The notes beneath the pieces are model-generated. The model did not search any database. It was given only the letters and a program-made list of their open reading frames with translations, and was not told where the DNA came from. A program made the position numbers and the translations under genes. A stretch of 64,000 nucleotides of DNA, taken from IMG/VR virus record IMGVR_UViG_3300050156_000143, positions 160,001 through 224,000 of that record, one strand, 5' to 3'. Positions 652 through 59,591 of the stretch are shown in pieces. Source of the stretch: a virus. Lineage: Duplodnaviria > Caudoviricetes. Position 1 is the stretch's first letter. Every line of letters begins with the position of its first letter.

Positions 652-687
652 TACACTGCATTCACTGCAATGGCGCAGACAACTTTT
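652..687 (+). promoter_or_regulatory. conserved promoter/leader motif, copy 1
   Basis: TACACTGCATTCACTGCAatggCGCAGACAACTTTT, 34/36 identical to 3720..3755; begins with a TACACT -10-like hexamer, followed by GAGGAG SD and ATG 702. Confidence 0.65.
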
Positions 688-2329: not shown

Positions 2330-2548
2330 ATGAATTATTCCCATAGTGAACGCCACAGTATTTTCAGAAAGTTGATCGATCCTCGAACCCACGAGATTTG
2401 GTACTGTGATAACATCAGACGCATCAAGACGGTGGAGGAAGTAGACTTCATTTGGGTCTACAAACCAGACAAGCCCCACCGAACAAACTTGATGCGAAAA
2501 GGTTACTTTTTTGAAAAACTTACCGAGGACTTGAAAAATGGATATTGA
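2330..2548 (+). CDS. hypothetical protein
   Basis: 72 aa ORF overlapping the next gene. Confidence 0.65.
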   Translation: MNYSHSERHSIFRKLIDPRTHEIWYCDNIRRIKTVEEVDFIWVYKPDKPHRTNLMRKGYFFEKLTEDLKNGY

Positions 2549-2906
2549 ACAAATTGTTCCAGATATTGTTTTTGTGCGAGTATTTAAACACATTTATACT
2601 GAAGATGGCGAAACCGGGATTGAATATGTTGCTGGCTTCGACTTGTGGCAGTTCCCAGACCACATCGATCAAGCATCTGATGTAATGGAACACCCTGATA
2701 CCAAACATATGTTCATCGTGTCGGGAATTGTGACCGATACTGCATATGAAACTGCTTGTCAAGCCGCGCACGCAGGATACATGATGTATAGTGCTGTTCA
2801 TGATGAGGTATCAGTGATCGACGAAAATGACGAAACCGTTGAATCATATTCAATGTCAGATTTACTCGATGATGAAGAAATACCGGCAGAAAGAACGTTG
2901 CACTAA
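2538..2906 (+). CDS. acidic hypothetical protein
   Basis: 122 aa ORF. Confidence 0.7.
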   Translation: MDIEQIVPDIVFVRVFKHIYTEDGETGIEYVAGFDLWQFPDHIDQASDVMEHPDTKHMFIVSGIVTDTAYETACQAAHAGYMMYSAVHDEVSVIDENDETVESYSMSDLLDDEEIPAERTLH

Positions 2907-2910
2907 CGTC

Positions 2911-2946
2911 AAAACGGTGGTGGGTAAAAAAACGGTGGTGGATAAA
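2911..2946 (+). repeat. 18-nt near-perfect tandem duplication upstream of a late promoter
   Basis: AAAACGGTGGTGGGTAAA / AAAACGGTGGTGGATAAA; second copy runs into TAAATA. Confidence 0.7.
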
Positions 2947-2952
2947 TAATTG

Positions 2953-3669
2953 ATGACAAAAATTCCGAAATCTGATATGTTACGCGACGCTAATCGGTTG
3001 TATTACCATGTATCACCTTTGCCAAAATTTACAGGAAATCGGCAAGACAGCATTTCGGAAGTTAATCTCATTTTGGATGAATTGCAAACCAGACAGTCAG
3101 AAAGTGATTTACCCATACCCGAGTATCGTACATTGGTGAGGTTGATTGCTCGGTATGAACGCATGCTCCAAGCCTTGGAATCTGGTGGCAGAGCATTTGG
3201 CAACAATGCGGGCATTGGTTCCACATCGTTTTATGCAACTTCTCAGCCAGAGTTTTGGCAATCTGTTCAGGAAGATGAACTCGGCGTTGACTACAGTAGA
3301 GGTGGAATATATGCGATCATCTTGAAACGCCCGAGGACTGAACGAATGGTGCCAGCAGGTATGGGAACATTGGCACCAGAAGTTTCGGTATCACTGTCCA
3401 ATGTGCAGACAATCTTGGGGCCGTTTAAGACGACAACTCAAGCGGATACGGCGATCAACCACAATAAAATTACACGTGGTAGTGCGGTTCCAGTCACGCC
3501 CGGACACAATACATCCGGTAAGAAAGTCATCACCGACCCAGACGAAAGAATGAAATATGCAACCTGGGGCCAATTGTTCGCAATGATTGATGGAATAGAG
3601 CACCGTGTTCCGCGTGGGGCATTGGATGATGATTTTGACCCGGTGATCCAAACCCACATCAAAACGTAG
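2953..3669 (+). CDS. hypothetical late protein
   Basis: TAAATA (2943..2948)-N4-ATG; about 238 aa ORF. Confidence 0.7.
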   Translation: MTKIPKSDMLRDANRLYYHVSPLPKFTGNRQDSISEVNLILDELQTRQSESDLPIPEYRTLVRLIARYERMLQALESGGRAFGNNAGIGSTSFYATSQPEFWQSVQEDELGVDYSRGGIYAIILKRPRTERMVPAGMGTLAPEVSVSLSNVQTILGPFKTTTQADTAINHNKITRGSAVPVTPGHNTSGKKVITDPDERMKYATWGQLFAMIDGIEHRVPRGALDDDFDPVIQTHIKT

Positions 3670-3719
3670 AAAGACCAACTTGGTGATGTGGGTATTGGCA
3701 TGTTGAACAAAACTGCTGC

Positions 3720-3755
3720 TACACTGCATTCACTGCACTGACGCAGACAACTTTT
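3720..3755 (+). promoter_or_regulatory. conserved promoter/leader motif, copy 2 (upstream of captured BREX cassette)
   Basis: Preceded by TG (extended -10 TGCTACACT), followed by AGGA SD and ATG 3767. Confidence 0.65.
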
Positions 3756-3766
3756 TAGGAAACAGC

Positions 3767-3925
3767 ATGAAATACGTTTATGTAGCCACCAAGGGCGGCG
3801 AGGTGTTTTACTTTTTGAGTGACTCGCTCGACCCTGCCACCCACCAACTTTGGCTGCGTAATCCTCAAACCCTGTATGGCGTGGAGAGTTCGATCTTCGC
3901 GCCGGGCGTGAAAGAGGGGGCGTGA
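3767..3925 (+). pseudogene. chimeric ORF: phage N-terminus fused to the C-terminal tail of BREX WYL regulator BrxR
   Basis: MKYVYVATKGGEVFYFLSD + SLDPATHQLWLRNPQTLYGVESSIFAPGVKEGA; second half resembles recalled BrxR C-termini; stop overlaps the brxA GTG. Confidence 0.65.
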
Positions 3926-4518
3926 TCGTGAGCCTCTATAACGCTGAAATCACTGCTGGCTCTTTGTTAGTGCCCGAGAGCCGCCGCATTGCGCGGCTGC
4001 TACTCACCCACCCAACGGCTGAGCAGTGGGACGAGGCCATGAAGCAGCAAAACCTGTTGCAAAAGTCGCCCGCCACTGCACAACGACAAGCACGCCTGAT
4101 TCGCAACCGGCTGGCAACGCTAGACGATGAGGGTCTACAGCTTGTCTCCGAAGGCGACGGCGAGATTACGGGGCAGGTATTGCTCGCTGCGGCTGCCCAG
4201 CACAGTCAATTGCTGAGTGACTTCATGCGCGATGTGTATGCGGCTGACCTGCGTCGCCTTGAGCGCACCTTAAGCCATCGGCAGTGGGAAGCCTTCCTCA
4301 CCGAATGCGAGCACCGTGACGCCAGCGTCGGCACCTGGGCCGATACGACCTGCAAAAAGCTCTTTCAGGTCATCGTCCGAATGCTGGTTGAAGCCAAGTT
4401 CCTCGATAGCTCACGGCGCATGGCACTCACGCCGCCCATGCTTCACCCTAAGGTTCGCGCCTACCTGATACGGCTGGGTGCTGAAAAAACGCTCGCCCGC
4501 ATGGAAACCACCGCATGA
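3922..4518 (+). CDS. brxA: BREX protein BrxA (DUF1819)
   Basis: YNAEITAGSLLVPESRRIARLL...QNLLQKSPATAQRQARLIRNRL...W...T.KKL.QVI.RMLVEA.FL; full-length 198 aa; GC-rich vs flanks. Confidence 0.92.
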   Translation: MIVSLYNAEITAGSLLVPESRRIARLLLTHPTAEQWDEAMKQQNLLQKSPATAQRQARLIRNRLATLDDEGLQLVSEGDGEITGQVLLAAAAQHSQLLSDFMRDVYAADLRRLERTLSHRQWEAFLTECEHRDASVGTWADTTCKKLFQVIVRMLVEAKFLDSSRRMALTPPMLHPKVRAYLIRLGAEKTLARMETTA

Positions 4519-4781
4519 AAACGTCTTTTGAAGAACGCCTGAATCAGGTTCTGCCTCGGTTGGCATCGCCGGACGTGCTGGACAACCTGGGCGCTGGTGG
4601 CGAGATTGGTTTTTGGATCTTCGACTACCCGACTCCATCCGAGTTGGCGATGTTATGCGATCTGGAAACGTTCCAACCATCTGAGGGAGACCCGGATCAT
4701 TACACATTTGACGACAATGTGGACTTGACGGTGGCTGGATTTAATTTCAGTTCACCCGACGAGTTTGAATCGGATTTCTGA
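4515..4781 (+). pseudogene. brxB: truncated BrxB (DUF1788) N-terminus fused to an acidic phage-like tail
   Basis: FEERLNQVLPRLASPDVLDNLGAGGEIGFWIFDYP matches the BrxB start; similarity and high GC stop near 4630; ATGA overlap with brxA. Confidence 0.8.
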
Positions 4782-4826
4782 TCCCCCCACCGTTAATTAA
4801 ATATTCACTTCACGATAGGAATCACA

Positions 4827-4976
4827 ATGTTCAAAACGATTTTCACCATTATTTTCGCCACTTTTGCCATCACCGGTATCACCAAACCCGTGTCAGACGG
4901 GGAATGCGGCAAGAATGGAGCACCTTGTATGCAGCATGAGCCAAAATGTACTCCAGAAAGTTGTTCGTCAAAATGA
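4827..4976 (+). CDS. small secreted Cys-rich peptide (49 aa)
   Basis: MFKTIFTIIFATFAITGITKPVSDGECGKNGAPCMQHEPKCTPESCSSK; AGGA SD; TAAATA at 4798; terminator follows; below ORF-track cutoff. Confidence 0.6.
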   Translation: MFKTIFTIIFATFAITGITKPVSDGECGKNGAPCMQHEPKCTPESCSSK

Positions 4977-4989
4977 TGCAATACAGTTG

Positions 4990-5015
4990 AAAAAAGCGGC
5001 CTAGGCCGCTTTTTT
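4990..5015. terminator. intrinsic terminator (CCTAGG family)
   Basis: AAAAAAGCGGCCTAGGCCGCTTTTTT. Confidence 0.85.
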
Positions 5016-5034
5016 CTTGTCTTATAAATACCAA

Positions 5035-5715
5035 ATGCGATTACATGAAATAGTTGATACTGCGTATAAGGTGACAAAAACAAATGGACAACACGATTTG
5101 CCAAAGATGATCGACAACCTTATGGCAAACGCCAACACGGAGCAAGCTGGAGTGTATGCACAAGGCTCACAAACCTCTGATCCATTCGTGTATCAAAAGA
5201 AGAATTTCTTGCCTTCTGAGTTAAAAAATGATGGGTATTTCAACTATATTAGAGCAATTAACCCCCACATAAAGAGTAACCCGTTTTTTCCACGAGTTTA
5301 CATGGTGGAACTCGATGTTGATGCCGATGGGCTGAAAGTTCCCCGATATGAAATGGAAAAGTTACTTAAACCGTCGCACGTCGGTCAAGAGGCCGTCATG
5401 GGTTTAGCTCAAAATCTAATTCACGGGTTTTCACTACGAGACAATAGTTTAGAAAACATGTGGGGGTACTTGGTGAAACTATTGGCACGATACGTCTGTG
5501 GCGACACTTCAATTGCCGAATATTTCACCTCAACGAAGCTGAAGCAGGCATTGGATTTAATTAAGCAGACTTTGGCAAGCAATAAAAACTTTAAGTGTGA
5601 TATTCACACCAACAATTGCATGGTTCGCATGACCAAATTTGGCCCACAACTTGTGATCACCGATCCGATTGAGGATCGCGTTAGTCGCATATCCAGTAGA
5701 CCCACGATTCATTGA
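5035..5715 (+). CDS. protein-kinase-like fold protein, late gene
   Basis: FFPRVY, YEMEKL, catalytic-loop-like DIHTNN and LVITDP; TATAAATA (5023..5030)-N4-ATG; starts MRLHEI. Confidence 0.65.
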   Translation: MRLHEIVDTAYKVTKTNGQHDLPKMIDNLMANANTEQAGVYAQGSQTSDPFVYQKKNFLPSELKNDGYFNYIRAINPHIKSNPFFPRVYMVELDVDADGLKVPRYEMEKLLKPSHVGQEAVMGLAQNLIHGFSLRDNSLENMWGYLVKLLARYVCGDTSIAEYFTSTKLKQALDLIKQTLASNKNFKCDIHTNNCMVRMTKFGPQLVITDPIEDRVSRISSRPTIH

Positions 5716-5798
5716 CCACATGTTTTAGTCAGGTACAAGGCACATTTCTCCACTGGGTGCTATGATTGCGTCATCGTAACCCAACCGAATAAACCACC

Positions 5799-6197
5799 AT
5801 GATCAACATGAAGCACGCCACCTTGACCGCCATTCTTGGGATCGCAGCGGTGACCGCGCCGTTTGTGCAATACGTGCCGAGCACTCACCTAGCATCCAAG
5901 ACGGTTAACGGTGAATTTGTGTTCTTCCCTCCTAACACCATTTCCATCAGTACGGAACACCTGAATTATTACGAGTTGACTGACATCGACGCGGTGACGT
6001 TTACCAAAAACAAACGAACATACGTGCTATCTATTCGGTGTGAAACGTGTGACCTGTCCGCACATGACATTGAGTTGCTCGCAACGGTGTTGCGCCAGCC
6101 TGATGTGTCTTACGAAAAACTGATGGCGTTGAACAGCAAATTGGACTCTTCGATCTTGACGGAACAAGTGCCCGACAATGGCCCTGCATTGTTGTAA
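5799..6197 (+). CDS. exported hypothetical protein
   Basis: Signal-peptide-like N-terminus; extended -10 TGCTATGAT at 5758. Confidence 0.65.
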   Translation: MINMKHATLTAILGIAAVTAPFVQYVPSTHLASKTVNGEFVFFPPNTISISTEHLNYYELTDIDAVTFTKNKRTYVLSIRCETCDLSAHDIELLATVLRQPDVSYEKLMALNSKLDSSILTEQVPDNGPALL

Positions 6198-6819
6198 AAC
6201 ACTACCGAAAACATTGTATGTTGCGTTTAGTGGAGGAGTTGATTCAGTGGTGTTGGCCACATTGGCTCTCAAACTCAAGCGCAACGTGCGGCTAGCGTTT
6301 TTTCATCATGGAAACGCTTACGCAGACGTTGAATACCAGTTTGCACAACAATTTGCTACCCAGCGTGGTCTCCATCTTGAGGTGGCGGGTATGCCAACCG
6401 TGGTGCGCAATCGTGAACACGAATGGCGCCACGCTAGATATGAGTTTTTTCAATCGTTGCCCCATCCTGTTGCCACTGGGCATCATTTGGATGATGCAGT
6501 GGAATGGTATCTGATGACTTGCCTCAAGGGAGAAGGACACTATATGTTGTATCAAAACAACAACGTGTTCAGGCCCATGTTGCTACAACGTAAAGAAACG
6601 ATTCAGCATTATGCTGAAGAAAATGGTCTAACGTGGATCGACGATCCATCCAACCATGATGTAGACTTTGCCACTCGCAACCGAGTAAGACACCTTTTGC
6701 TACCACAGTGCCTGGAAATCAATCCAGGTCTGCATGAAACCGTGCGCCGCCACATTCGCAACAAAATTCACCCACCGAAGGACTCCACATGTTTGAACTC
6801 ATCGTGCTTGCAACCTTGA
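6178..6819 (+). CDS. tilS: tRNA(Ile)-lysidine synthetase TilS/MesJ, catalytic domain only
   Basis: PP-loop VAFSGGVDS, ATGHHLDD, RPML, WIDDPSN, RNRVR. Confidence 0.9.
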   Translation: MALHCCKTLPKTLYVAFSGGVDSVVLATLALKLKRNVRLAFFHHGNAYADVEYQFAQQFATQRGLHLEVAGMPTVVRNREHEWRHARYEFFQSLPHPVATGHHLDDAVEWYLMTCLKGEGHYMLYQNNNVFRPMLLQRKETIQHYAEENGLTWIDDPSNHDVDFATRNRVRHLLLPQCLEINPGLHETVRRHIRNKIHPPKDSTCLNSSCLQP

Positions 6820-7891: not shown

Positions 7892-8824
7892 ATGATCCTC
7901 ATTGGTTCTGCCGCATTTGCGCAGTTTGATTTGTCTGTTGTTTCCACTGACATTGATCTAGTCGGGTCTTATCAAGAGATTTACAAACTGAAAGCCAAGT
8001 TGCGTCCAAAGTTGTTTTACCCGACTTCAAACGGTGATAAGATTTTCATGCGTTTGAAAACAGGTGAGATTTATGACTTGGAAATAGCTTGGCCCAACGG
8101 CATGGGTGAAAAGTTGGTCAAGTTCATTCAACAATATCCCCACTCTTGCACAAAAATTGAATTGCACGGGTTTCAGGTCGATGTTCCTGGGATCAATTTG
8201 CAATTGTTGCTCAAGATGTCCCACCGGTATAAGAAAAATTCCGCCCACTTTTTGAAGACCATGCGGCATATTCACCGTCTTCGCAATTTGGGGGCAATTA
8301 TTCCACCAGAATGGCAGGACTACTATCACAACAGAATGGCAGACACTTATTCGTATCACCATCCAAATCTATCGGTGTCCAAGACCGATTTTTTCAATGT
8401 GGATTACACGGGTGTTCCACAGGTTTACGACCATGACAGTATTCATGAAGTTGTCGCCATTGATGGGAAACCTGCCTACCTGCATTACAAGATTCCTGGA
8501 CAAGAGGTGCAGTGTTCCAAAGACCTGTTCTATTCAGTTCCAGCATCCACTAGAATCAATGGAGTAGTGGAGGAAGCAATGGTTCTAGCGCTAGAGAGAT
8601 CGATAGTCCCCTATCCCGGCGCCATGACTGATGACCAGGCGTTCACCAAGGCGTTGGAAAAGGTTTGCACTTCCATCACATCCGGGTGGTTCCGTGAATT
8701 TGCGTGGGAGCATTATGATGCGGCATTGAGCAAATTCCACCTTTTGCAAACCGACTCGCCATTATCTGAAAAGTTTAACCAAGCTGTGATTAACGGCACA
8801 GTCAAAATGAAGGAAACTATATGA
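7892..8824 (+). CDS. pol-beta-superfamily nucleotidyltransferase-like protein
   Basis: N-terminal LIGSAA-x9-TDIDLVG matches hG[GS]...DhD; GGGAG SD favours ATG 7892; ATGA-coupled to thg1. Confidence 0.6.
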   Translation: MILIGSAAFAQFDLSVVSTDIDLVGSYQEIYKLKAKLRPKLFYPTSNGDKIFMRLKTGEIYDLEIAWPNGMGEKLVKFIQQYPHSCTKIELHGFQVDVPGINLQLLLKMSHRYKKNSAHFLKTMRHIHRLRNLGAIIPPEWQDYYHNRMADTYSYHHPNLSVSKTDFFNVDYTGVPQVYDHDSIHEVVAIDGKPAYLHYKIPGQEVQCSKDLFYSVPASTRINGVVEEAMVLALERSIVPYPGAMTDDQAFTKALEKVCTSITSGWFREFAWEHYDAALSKFHLLQTDSPLSEKFNQAVINGTVKMKETI

Positions 8825-9627
8825 AAGATGCTCTTGGCGACCGTATGAAAATGTACGAACAACGTGAGGCGCACCGGTTGTGCCCGTTGCTGCCCGTGAT
8901 TGCCAGAGTGGATGGACGGTCATTTCACAGCTTCACCAAAGGCATGAAACGCCCGTTTGACAAAGAATTCACCAATGCGATGATTGCGACTACCATCGGA
9001 CTGGTGAAGGAAACTGGCGCATGTATTGGCTACACCCAAAGTGACGAAATCACTTTGATTTGGCATTCAACTGACATCCGTAGTCAGATATGGTTTGATT
9101 GCCGTGTGCAAAAGATGGTCAGTCAACTTGGCGCACAAGCTACTCTTATGTTTTACCGAGAGTGTTTGGCCAATTTCCCCCAGTTTGCAGGCAGGATGCC
9201 AACCTTTGATGCGCGAGTGTGGTCTGTGCCGAATCAAACTGAGGCATGCAACGTTTTGTTGTGGCGCGAATGGGATGCAACAAAAAACAGCTTGACGATG
9301 GCTGCGAGTGAACATTTCAGCCACAAAGACCTGATGAATAAAAACAGCAAAGCCAAACATGACATGTTGCACAGCGTCGGGGTAAACTGGAATGATTACC
9401 CCGTGGCGTTTAAACGTGGCACATATGTTCAACGCATGGTGAAAGAACTTGCATACACCGCGTCGGAATTGTGTGCATTACCGCCAAAACATAAGGCGCG
9501 TAGTGATCCAACCATGAAGGTTATGCGGTCAGTGGTGGAAGCAATTGATATGCCGATTTTTAGCAAAGTGCTCAATAAAGATGCTGTTGTTTTTCTCGGT
9601 GCCAGCCCAATAACAGACGGAGCTTAA
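8821..9627 (+). CDS. thg1: tRNA(His) guanylyltransferase Thg1-like (3'-5' polymerase)
   Basis: LGDRMKMYE, ARVDGRSFHSFT, YTQSDEITL, FDARV, WREWDATKNS. Confidence 0.93.
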   Translation: MKDALGDRMKMYEQREAHRLCPLLPVIARVDGRSFHSFTKGMKRPFDKEFTNAMIATTIGLVKETGACIGYTQSDEITLIWHSTDIRSQIWFDCRVQKMVSQLGAQATLMFYRECLANFPQFAGRMPTFDARVWSVPNQTEACNVLLWREWDATKNSLTMAASEHFSHKDLMNKNSKAKHDMLHSVGVNWNDYPVAFKRGTYVQRMVKELAYTASELCALPPKHKARSDPTMKVMRSVVEAIDMPIFSKVLNKDAVVFLGASPITDGA

Positions 9628-19514: not shown

Positions 19515-20774
19515 ATGGAACAAGATTACAACTTCATCGATGGCGTTCACGTTGGTATCAAAGCCTGGACTAAGGGTGTGCAAATGGAAGATGCTGCACG
19601 CCAACAATTGCTCAACATTTCATCACTGCCTTTTATCCATAGTCACATCGCGGTGATGCCCGATGTGCATTACGGTCTTGGTGCAACAATTGGCAGTGTG
19701 ATTGCCACAAAGGGCGCCATCGTTCCCGCTGCCGTGGGCGTTGATCTTGGCTGCGGTATGTTCGCACAACGCACGTCATTGGTCGCATCAGATTTGCCCG
19801 ACAACTTGCATGCCCTTCGCAGCAACATCGAGTCCAAGATTCCCCACGGTCGCACTAACAATGGCGGTCAAGGTGATCGCGGAGCGTGGCACAACGTTCC
19901 AGATGACGTTTACAAACGCTTGACTCCCAGTTTAACCGCATTGTCGGCCATCACTGAAAAACACCCCAAACTACAACGTGCGGCGCAACGTGCAGCAAAC
20001 CATTGTGGAACACTTGGTACTGGCAACCATTTTGTGGAAGTTTGCCTGGATGAGGAACAGCGTGTGTGGATCATGCTGCACTCGGGTTCACGTGGGATTG
20101 GCAACGCAATTGGCACTTATTTCATCGAACATGCTAAGAAAGATATGCAACGCTGGTTTATCAACTTGCCCGACCAAGATTTGGCATATATTCCGCAGGG
20201 TTCCGAGTTGTTTGACGACTACTGTCTGGCGTTAAAGTGGGCGCAAGATTATGCTCACATCAATCGCCAAGTCATGATGGATGCAGCGATGCGTGCTTTG
20301 ATTGAATCGGTGCCAAAACCGTTTACGTGCGACTGTGAATCGGTGCCAAAACCGTTTACGTGCGACTGTGAATCGGTCAATTGCCATCACAATTATGTGA
20401 ACTGGGAACGCCATTATGGGGAAAACGTGATGGTCACTCGTAAGGGCGCAGTCTCGGCACAGAAGGGGCAGTTTGGCATCATCCCCGGTAGCATGGGCGC
20501 AAAATCGTTCATTGTGAGTGGCAAAGGTAATCCAGAATCGTTTTGCTCATGTTCGCACGGAGCTGGGCGATCAATGTCTCGAACCGCAGCCAAAAAGAAA
20601 TTCACACTCAAAGACCACGAAATTGCCACCAATGGGGTTGAATGTCGAAAAGACGCGGACGTGATCGATGAAACCCCAATGGCGTACAAAGATATCGACG
20701 ATGTGATGAAGGCCCAAGAAAGCCTGGTGGACATCGTTCACACTTTGAAACAAATCGTGTGCGTGAAGGGGTGA
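19515..20774 (+). CDS. rtcB: RNA ligase RtcB
   Basis: MPDVHYG.GATIG, GVDLGCGM, GTGNHFVE, HSGSRG, CHHNY, PGSMG, SCSHGAGR, DE.P.AYKDI. Confidence 0.96.
   Translation: MEQDYNFIDGVHVGIKAWTKGVQMEDAARQQLLNISSLPFIHSHIAVMPDVHYGLGATIGSVIATKGAIVPAAVGVDLGCGMFAQRTSLVASDLPDNLHALRSNIESKIPHGRTNNGGQGDRGAWHNVPDDVYKRLTPSLTALSAITEKHPKLQRAAQRAANHCGTLGTGNHFVEVCLDEEQRVWIMLHSGSRGIGNAIGTYFIEHAKKDMQRWFINLPDQDLAYIPQGSELFDDYCLALKWAQDYAHINRQVMMDAAMRALIESVPKPFTCDCESVPKPFTCDCESVNCHHNYVNWERHYGENVMVTRKGAVSAQKGQFGIIPGSMGAKSFIVSGKGNPESFCSCSHGAGRSMSRTAAKKKFTLKDHEIATNGVECRKDADVIDETPMAYKDIDDVMKAQESLVDIVHTLKQIVCVKG
20303..20377 (+). repeat. exact 33-nt in-frame tandem duplication within rtcB
   Basis: TGAATCGGTGCCAAAACCGTTTACGTGCGACTG x2 + TGAATCGGT (ESVPKPFTCDC x2). 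Confidence 0.95.
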
Positions 20775-22705: not shown

Positions 22706-23133
22706 AGGATCAGGCCGAAGTTACCCTCAACCAGTACGATCAACTTGTCTTTTACCGTGATTTACACCCTAGCCCTCCCATGAAAACACTATCTGATTTC
22801 CCGGTATTGGAAATTTTGGACAGGGTGGTTTTCAAAAATGGCGAACAAGGCATCTATCTCGGGGAAATGCGTGCAGGGAGTAAACGAGAACTATGCGCTG
22901 CGTTTATCGTCAATGATGGTCGCCACCCAAAATACATTCAGCCATCGGCAGTTCACCAATACGTTTCACACGTGTTCTCCCATGATGTTGAACATACTGT
23001 CAAAAATGGTATCAATTTTGCAACAAATTGCATGTACCGTGGAAAACTAAAATGGGAAGCACCATCGCTACGGTTAAAAGAAATTGACGAGCAGATTGCA
23101 AAATTGATGGAAGAACGTAGCAAGCTACTGTGA
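22702..23133 (+). CDS. hypothetical protein
   Basis: GTGA overlap; C-terminal coiled coil. Confidence 0.7.
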   Translation: MKDQAEVTLNQYDQLVFYRDLHPSPPMKTLSDFPVLEILDRVVFKNGEQGIYLGEMRAGSKRELCAAFIVNDGRHPKYIQPSAVHQYVSHVFSHDVEHTVKNGINFATNCMYRGKLKWEAPSLRLKEIDEQIAKLMEERSKLL

Positions 23134-23134
23134 C

Positions 23135-23159
23135 AAAAAGCGGCATAGGCCGCTTTTTT
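23135..23159. terminator. intrinsic terminator (CCTAGG family variant)
   Basis: AAAAAGCGGC-ATAG-GCCGCTTTTTT. Confidence 0.85.
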
Positions 23160-23230
23160 CATGATCCACCAAATTTATTTTCATTTTTTTCACCATTTTG
23201 TTGAAAAATGTGGTGAACTGTGGTTAAATA

Positions 23231-26730: not shown

Positions 26731-26741
26731 TTGAACAATAG

Positions 26742-26766
26742 AAAAAGCGGCCTAGGCCGCTTTTTT
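26742..26766. terminator. intrinsic terminator (CCTAGG family)
   Basis: AAAAAGCGGCCTAGGCCGCTTTTTT. Confidence 0.85.
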
Positions 26767-26790
26767 GGCAAACTAAGCAAAGATTGCATC

Positions 26791-41104: not shown

Positions 41105-41518
41105 AAGGAAATGATGATGAAAACTGTTGAAAAAACTGACGAACAACTTGACGCGATGATTTACAGGGTGATGGCGGGCGTGGTGGTGTTTGGGGTGTCA
41201 GTAGTTATTTGGTTCCATCATTTTGGCTAAGTTGTTATGAAGCCCATCCCCCCATCAAGCGAATATTTGAAAGAAGAGAGTGGTCTTGGCGTATTGGTCT
41301 GCTTGTTGATTGCTTTCTTTCTCGGATTGATCGCCGTTGGCGCCATCATGTTAACAACCCCTGAACAGGCTGTGTGCCCTGCGCGCAATTCGGCATCGCC
41401 ACCTTGGTTGTGAACATTGACCTGACAGAGAGGTTGTTACACAAATGGCACCTCTTTTGTTTACACTTGTGTCACAATGTTCGTATCGACCACACCCAAT
41501 CCGACCATTGCGCCCCAT

Positions 41519-59530: not shown

Positions 59531-59549
59531 CCTTATTTTCTCCAACCTG

Positions 59550-59575
59550 AAAAAAGTGGCCTAGGCCACTTTTTT
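59550..59575. terminator. intrinsic terminator (CCTAGG family)
   Basis: AAAAAAGTGGCCTAGGCCACTTTTTT. Confidence 0.85.
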
Positions 59576-59591
59576 GCATTAGAATCCCATC

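Follow-up and report, generated by a model that had tools for sequence, protein, structure and literature searches.

The locus described here, in which a natural phage carries brxA alone, essentially unchanged and on phage signals, raises the question of whether an excess of cognate BrxA turns BREX off. The way in which BREX arrests phages is incompletely understood, least of all the part played by BrxA: the protein is essential in some BREX systems and dispensable in others, and it holds BrxC off DNA in vitro. The carrier is a 277-kb jumbo phage of the lytic type from leaf litter. Its record comprises 277,516 bp with direct terminal repeats and has a GC content of 44.9%, and the stretch analysed, referred to below as the window, consists of 64,000 nucleotides (bases 160,001–224,000 of the record). 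An initial annotation of the window had described a host-like GC island at about 3822–4630 that holds an intact brxA between truncated neighbours fused to phage sequence, and had suggested either an anti-BREX decoy or dominant-negative factor or a recent capture. We compared this region with cellular BREX loci, with related phage contigs and with contigs from other public runs, and the coordinates of the resulting features are collected in Table 1.

Table 1 Features of the BREX insert and its surroundings, with positions in the window except where the genome is named.
Feature	Position	Strand	Basis
32-nt conserved phage leader, promoter-like motif	3720..3751	+	repeats, L029 identity
Copies of the 32-nt motif	window 652-683, 3720-3751; genome 58065, 75657, 124298, 149635, 226837, 246837		genome search
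Chimeric 52-aa ORF: 19 phage codons and last 33 brxR codons, in frame	3767..3925	+	L029, L002 comparison
Left junction, 4-nt microhomology ACTC	3822..3825	+	L029 homology ends at 3825; cellular brxR homology starts at 3822
BREX-derived insert, about 801-810 nt	3822..4631	+	homology, GC peak, donor-type contigs
brxA, complete: 198 aa (GTG at 3922) or 196 aa (GTG at 3928)	3922/3928..4518	+	Pfam, PADLOC, PDB
Chimeric 88-aa ORF: BrxB 1-39 and 49 C-terminal residues of phage acidic protein, in frame	4515..4781	+	PADLOC, P0121
Right junction, 5-nt microhomology ACCCG	4627..4631	+	L025 homology from 4627; donor-type sequence to 4631
49-aa hydrophobic, Cys-rich ORF, last gene of the unit; phage sequence, outside the capture	4827..4976	+	conserved in L025, L022
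Intrinsic terminator; palindromic 12-bp stem flanked by runs of T and A	4989..5016	+	terminator search
Copies of the terminator hairpin	window 4989-5016, 23133-23160, 26740-26767, 59549-59576; five more outside the window		genome search

The base composition set the region apart from the rest of the genome. In windows of 200 nt, the GC content was 57–60% over 3800–4600, compared with ~45% in the flanks, and the 600-nt window at 3901 was the GC maximum of the genome (0.602, against a mean of 0.449 and a standard deviation of 0.027, or ~+5.7 sd). The sole other window above +3 sd in the entire genome sits in a large native ORF. With blastn, similarity to cellular BREX loci spanned 3822–4652 at 79–81% identity (81% for the Rubrivivax MAG L002), and the matched loci had the gene order BrxR(WYL)-BrxA-BrxB-BrxC-PglX. 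The insert contains brxA in full, preceded by the last 33 codons of brxR and followed by the first 39 of brxB, close to the ~33 and ~38 codons read initially for the two truncated genes. The overlaps that had been noted at that stage, GTGA between the brxR stub and brxA and ATGA between brxA and the brxB stub, are both kept. In L002, a DpdA-like gene (7-deazapurine DNA modification; L002:3455-4975) was found directly upstream of brxR, which places BREX there within a defence island.

The description of brxA as complete was borne out by Pfam, PADLOC and PDB searches. Its product matched the Pfam family PF08849 (DUF1819) over positions 3–182 of the 184 in the profile (E = 2e-55; 187.8 bits, with a cut-off of 23), as well as the PADLOC BrxA profile (3.7e-92) and the PDB structures 3bhw (4.8e-35) and 7zge (1.4e-24). 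All 46 alignment columns that are invariant in 16 cellular BrxA proteins are unchanged in the phage copy, which shares 85–87% of its amino acids with BrxA of complete Burkholderiales BREX operons. The C-terminal 33 residues of the upstream 52-aa ORF, which had been attributed to a BrxR-like WYL regulator, were identical at 28 positions to the C-terminus of the WYL/BrxR protein encoded upstream of brxA in L002; the corresponding upstream gene in L020 has WHD_BrxR, WYL and BrxR_CTD domains. The stop of the 52-aa ORF overlaps the start of brxA within the GTGA. This BrxR stub is without the winged-helix, WYL and C-terminal domains, and a Pfam search with it gave no match. The head of the downstream 88-aa ORF corresponds to BrxB residues 1–39/40 (PADLOC BrxB, 4.5e-11, profile positions 1–53 of 193); it is without the BrxB core domain PF08747 (residues about 69–190) and the residues of that protein that contact PglZ and BrxC, and it likewise gave no match in Pfam. 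The 88-aa fusion as a whole has a pI of ~4. Searches of PHROGs and NCBIfam with the three ORFs gave no match.

In the rest of the phage genome, no match to the BrxB core, PglZ or the fourth domain of BrxC was obtained at E <= 1; these three were the components covered by the search. Given the absence of the BrxB core, PglZ and BrxC, the phage appears unable to run BREX by itself, and it does not have the set of brxB, brxC, pglX, pglZ and brxL alongside brxA that marks a type I BREX system.

Given that the record is a metagenome assembly and that donor-type DNA occurs in related samples, the locus could be a chimera assembled from phage and bacterial reads, as had been pointed out with the initial annotation. 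We placed contigs from four public runs (X1–X4) on positions 2500–6000, with L022, L023 and L024 obtained by exact protein look-up. A Logan contig (L023) of run X1, possibly the source sample, came from a different assembler and covered 3726–5016 with 0 differences; it spanned both junctions at even depth, and the repeated leader and terminator were the sole points at which it broke. Run X2 represents another sample, and there a Logan contig of 902 nt (L024) covered 4115–5016 with one difference, and a JGI contig of 2,066 nt from the same sample (L022) corresponded to window positions 3856–5922 at 98.4% identity; L024 and L022 both carry the right junction, and the latter contains the insert with four substitutions and one 1-nt deletion relative to the window. 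A further 28 substitutions in L022 are clustered in the downstream gene. A chimera would require two false joins 0.8 kb apart within a 277-kb contig, and the right junction together with flanks of 98.4% identity is shared by a second sample and a third assembly. Independent contigs across the junctions and the existence of a second strain thus make an assembly chimera very unlikely, and we assign it a probability close to nil. The left junction was bridged in X1 only. Contigs of the second sample that lie left of the insert carried alleles of the type found in an insert-free relative (L029, described below) and ended exactly at 3826; either the insert is linked to two left-flank haplotypes there, or two phages coexist.

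Insert-free relatives were found for both flanks. A search with the acidic tail of the 88-aa ORF matched one protein, the 81-aa P0121 on JGI contig L025, at 92% identity. L025 itself matches the window, also at 92% identity, over a span that begins exactly at 4627 and reaches 5730; left of 4627 it has no BREX DNA, the 5' half of the 81-aa gene being intact there. With the upstream gene as query, P0122 was found on JGI contig L029, which is 93.8% identical to the window over 2821–3825; the homology ends at 3825. L029 contains the identical 32-nt leader and then the same first 19 codons (95% identical N-terminus), which there open an intact ORF of at least 89 aa. The genes on L029 (930–1196) and L025 (116–361) are collinear homologues with 29% identity (E = 7e-4), and the insert position is the same in the alignments of both, directly after a common YFL. 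Since L029 and L025 carry the gene whole and without the insert, these comparisons indicate that the BREX piece interrupts a small, very acidic, hypervariable phage gene. The AT-rich N-terminus in front of the brxR stub and the acidic tail behind the brxB stub, which had been listed as two separate fusion partners, are the start and the end of this one gene. Microhomologies of 4–5 nt at the two ends of the insert point to illegitimate recombination.

Of the two stumps in the window, the left belongs to the L029 type and the right to the L025 type. A single allele split by the insert, as the shared YFL motif alone would suggest, was considered and rejected, in that the flanks are closest to two alleles that are only 29% identical. 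The 81-aa protein has 20 acidic and 3 basic residues and a pI of ~4, and a search of a protein atlas matched it to no known family. The gene is hypervariable among phages whose flanks are 92–94% identical, and it looks like a hypervariable slot of the type that is often tied to host interaction. A pI of ~4 for the 81-aa form recalls DNA-mimic anti-restriction proteins. A 30-mer of the uninterrupted allele was absent from IMG/VR, a scan of JGI metagenomes with the upstream gene gave no match, and neither megablast of the region against GenBank phages nor blastn against E. coli genomes returned any.

With regard to the donor, the closest assembled cellular loci are in Burkholderiales MAGs (85–87% identity for amino acids and 81% for nucleotides), and a tree placed the phage BrxA among the copies of these MAGs, on a long branch. 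Closer sequences were present in runs X3 and X4, in which short, low-depth contigs cover ~1 kb of the insert with 0–1 differences each; X4 and parts of X3 cover the BREX part alone, from which we draw no conclusion on phage flanks. One X3 contig is identical to the insert over 4445–4631 and then continues into PEYEMQMRSW as in cellular BrxB (26–28 of 30 nt identical to brxB). Run X3 also carries the uninterrupted allele of the L025 type. The donor lineage thus occurs in related samples, with DNA that is essentially identical to the insert over the covered parts. A scan of JGI metagenomes with a donor-specific 30-mer gave no match. The identity of the donor-type DNA to the insert implies that the capture is very recent.

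The two phage strains differ in brxA at one non-synonymous and two synonymous positions. At T9S, at the synonymous changes in R19 and G69 and at a 1-nt indel in a run of G, the second strain has the cellular or donor-type state. This G-run (3911–3916) precedes the start of brxA, and the one-base difference in its length shifts both the stop of the BrxR-stub ORF and the spacing between the SD-like run and the brxA start. Neither stub shows trimming or streamlining. A donor sequence, insert-free relatives and microhomology at both ends, the marks by which captured host DNA is recognized, were all found at this locus. We consider it highly probable that the locus is the product of a recent, microhomology-mediated capture that left an intact brxA behind phage signals, and the earlier suggestion of such a capture is upheld.

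The phage leader in front of the insert, which had been seen to recur at position 652, is present in eight genome copies with 0–4 mismatches, six of them additional to these two. The 32-nt motif begins with TACACT (TACACTGCATTCACTGCA) and is preceded by TGC at 3720. Each copy lies 14–21 nt upstream of an ATG that opens an ORF of 52–188 aa, with an SD-like purine run before the ATG. The ORFs behind the motif copies are unrelated in sequence. In L029 the leader is identical while the adjoining intergenic bases differ. TACACT is often preceded by TG, and a TTGACA-like hexamer lies 18–20 nt upstream; on the strength of these three elements, the motif is probably a promoter together with a conserved 5' leader. 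A sigma-70 consensus scan called no promoter at the leader, for which the spacers would be 18–20 nt. The conservation of the motif reaches far past what a -10 box requires. It may act as promoter and regulatory 5' leader that serves a group of genes, probably early ones.

From the leader to position 4989, the + strand showed no terminator-like site. The terminator hairpin at that position occurs in nine copies in the genome. Its stem has GCGGCC/GGCCGC between A and T runs, and de Bruijn contigs break there; with A and T runs on its flanks the hairpin could work in both directions. Judged from this arrangement of signals, transcription would run from the leader through brxA. A search for RNA runs that contain the stretch gave no match, which bears in neither direction on expression. 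The 49-aa ORF at the end of the unit has a hydrophobic N-terminus and a Cys-rich tail, and in L025 it extends to 66 aa through the terminator.

Selection on brxA, for which dN/dS had been proposed as a measure, could not be read from that value. The pairwise dN/dS of brxA against cellular genes was indeed low (~0.09), the same as among cellular pairs, and pN/pS of the brxR and brxB stubs was equally low (0.05–0.16). Given that the dead stubs are as low as brxA, a low dN/dS tells nothing of selection in the phage, and we discarded it as a sign thereof. Most simply, the donor lineage had already diverged from the assembled relatives by the time of the capture. When amelioration was assessed, the private differences of the phage copy comprised 29 GC-to-AT and 8 AT-to-GC changes, and the cellular relatives have the same per-site bias. 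We found no lone brxA in other phages in PHROGs, IMG/VR or the GenBank phage records examined, by searches whose reach is limited for distant BrxA clades. BrxA has no PHROG family, scans of IMG/VR with BrxA and both flanking genes as single proteins gave no match, and an IMG/VR scan with a profile built from 17 BrxA proteins gave no further BrxA of this clade. The matches among GenBank phage records that were examined (H3 and H6) are whole BREX loci on bacterial or unverified contigs.

An event so recent requires no selection for its persistence, and the insert may be a passenger, neutral or slightly deleterious: host DNA caught by accident during infection that would have reached high frequency by hitch-hiking, with any BrxA made having no effect on infection. 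We hold this to be possible though somewhat doubtful. A 277-kb genome with a dispensable, hypervariable small gene can absorb such a piece; the donor-type DNA is identical over the covered parts; junctions with microhomology are what illegitimate recombination typically leaves; both stubs, though useless, have been kept; and neither a selection signal nor recurrence in other phages was found. By our rough estimate, ~1/10 of random 0.8-kb bacterial pieces would hold a whole gene, and both fusions would be in frame by chance in ~1/9 of cases. Chance alone fits less readily with the gene that was captured whole: it belongs to a defence system, runs in the sense direction behind a phage leader and is, by its overlap, probably translationally coupled. 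The insert is furthermore present in two strains and two samples, and it is the sole strong compositional outlier genome-wide, which indicates that the phage is not a routine collector of host scraps.

That early-expressed BrxA disturbs the BREX system of the host is, in our estimation, a nearly balanced question that leans slightly to the negative. Several features of the locus speak for selection on brxA. Between the breakpoints exactly one gene is whole, and it encodes a defence component; relative to the leader it is in sense orientation, and no terminator intervenes before 4989; the upstream ORF ends on the brxA start, with the family-invariant residues all kept; and the phage, in which no BrxB core, PglZ or BrxC was found, appears unable to run BREX by itself. 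Purified BrxA pulls down BrxC and lowers its DNA binding, also with BrxB:PglZ and PglX (PMC13326643), which lends the earlier decoy or dominant-negative idea a mechanistic basis, and in view of this inhibition an early flood of host-type BrxA could prevent BrxC from binding DNA. BrxC is likewise the target of OrbA, the sole BREX-specific inhibitor known from a phage (PMC11580459). Counting against interference with BREX, BrxA is a positive component of the system in Salmonella and Acinetobacter, in which it is needed for methylation and defence, and it is dispensable in E. coli (PMC12839542). The lack of a discernible selection signal, the lone brxA without recurrence in other phages and the untrimmed stubs also count against it. 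In the literature consulted we found no report of inhibition in vivo by excess BrxA.

As a specific form of such interference we propose, tentatively and with the balance somewhat against it, that unmodified BrxA stolen from the host and overproduced early from a phage promoter is a stoichiometric BREX poison that acts via BrxC. As set out above, the jumbo phage took up ~0.8 kb of a type I BREX operon of the Burkholderiales type through illegitimate recombination at microhomologies; the donor is taken to be a host of the phage. The piece landed in the acidic hypervariable gene behind a phage leader, and brxA alone survived whole; both stubs would be by-products of the breakpoints. The unit of leader, chimeric ORF, brxA, chimeric ORF, small ORF and terminator would then be transcribed from the phage element, and BrxA would be translated by coupling to the upstream chimeric ORF. 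Excess BrxA, identical or nearly identical to that of the host, would bind host BrxC and keep it off DNA or out of productive BrxB:BrxC:PglZ:PglX assemblies, so that BREX would be held idle during replication of the phage genome.

BrxA might also serve the phage in another way, as a DNA-binding, HTH-type regulator or by pushing the host BREX to methylate phage DNA. The protein is a small protein that binds DNA and is made up of HTH-like modules, for which a regulatory role has been suggested (PMC12839542), and it is required for methylation in some systems. The phage copy is, however, identical or nearly identical to that of the donor, which speaks against adaptation to a new role, and a supporting context is absent; we give this reading a small chance. 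A slimmer chance still attaches to activity of the chimeric peptides, whereby the fusion of BrxB(1-39) to the acidic tail or the fusion to the BrxR tail would act as a decoy for PglZ, BrxC or BrxR. Both share their reading frame with phage coding sequence and would yield translated products, and the tail retains most of the acidic phage protein. The BrxB stub, however, ends before R46/R49, N135 and W137, which hold PglZ (PMC12205998), and before R82 and R182, which contact BrxC (PMC13326643); the equivalent arginine is found at about residue 47 in this clade. The BrxR stub amounts to 33 aa of a three-domain dimeric regulator, and its frame past the G-run at 3911–3916 differs between the strains as a result of the 1-nt indel.

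Returning to BrxA as a BREX poison, we compared the locus with known systems. The phage copy has in common with cellular type I BrxA (DUF1819; E. fergusonii 7ZGE, PDB 3BHW) the full-length family match and the native overlaps, and it differs in being accompanied by phage signals and dead brxR and brxB stubs, with no other BREX genes (BrxB core, PglZ, BrxC) found. The DNA binding and BrxC interaction ascribed to BrxA come from the literature on the Acinetobacter and E. fergusonii proteins. OrbA of vibriophage ICP1 shares with our proposal the BrxC target, the outcome of BREX being off and the specificity for one BREX lineage, but is a phage protein without homologues beyond ICP1 (PMC11580459), whereas the protein here is an unmodified copy of a BREX subunit with a predicted activity. 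T7 Ocr and T3 SAM lyase (PMC7261183, bioRxiv 10.1101/2023.02.27.530186) are early phage products that disable BREX, as proposed for BrxA, although by unlike mechanisms, with Ocr being a DNA mimic that binds PglX and the T3 enzyme depleting SAM. The interrupted acidic gene (pI ~4) recalls DNA mimics such as Ocr superficially, with no homology detected.

The logic of a defence component or its imitation being over-supplied, such that the system becomes unproductive, is shared with the ICP1 antitoxin mimic that acts against DarTG (bioRxiv 10.1101/2023.12.14.571748). The locus also resembles ordinary acquisition of host genes, such as morons and auxiliary genes, by illegitimate recombination: its junctions carry microhomology, its composition is foreign, and it lies in an accessory region beside genes of the tRNA-repair type. 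A further instance of phage counter-defence by copies of host immune parts is provided by RNA anti-CRISPRs, which consist of CRISPR repeats. Both the antitoxin mimic and the RNA anti-CRISPRs are adapted, recurrent and active genes, whereas the locus described here is a raw, very recent capture with a predicted activity. Compared with ordinary host-gene capture, the record is unusually complete, in that donor-type DNA, insert-free relatives and the insert-bearing phage have all been sampled. What is new here are the insert-free relatives, the junction microhomology, the donor-identical DNA, the absence of the other BREX genes searched and the lone brxA.

If BrxA does turn BREX off, direct theft of a regulatory subunit would be a new route to anti-defence genes, and the protein would be a tool with which to dissect BREX assembly. 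Since related leaf-litter samples contain the donor, the uninterrupted alleles and the phage with the insert side by side, the emergence of an anti-defence gene from a defence subunit could in that case be followed in nature. If it does not, the locus is still a well-documented snapshot of host-DNA pickup by a phage, with donor, target and product all sampled.

The sampled part of the window also encodes several accessory genes, namely an RtcB ligase, a Thg1-like enzyme, a PP-loop ATPase, an ATP-dependent protease and a transposase-like ORF. The PP-loop ATPase (TilS/QueC-like; 6178–6819), the Thg1-like tRNA-His guanylyltransferase (8821–9627) and the RtcB ligase (19515–20774) form one accessory region with the BREX insert, and the three together resemble a set for tRNA repair or modification, with which anticodon nucleases could be countered. 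A 414-aa ORF at 41477–42721 hits the phage transposase families phrog_12300 and phrog_506 (E = 1e-17 to 1e-19) and may be a mobile element within the jumbo phage. The gene that follows the terminator (5017–5715) has weak PHROG matches (E = 0.0007–0.003), including one to a T7 gp0.7-like kinase / host-transcription inhibitor, and a patch of it at 5331–5583 diverges by 11% between the two phage strains.
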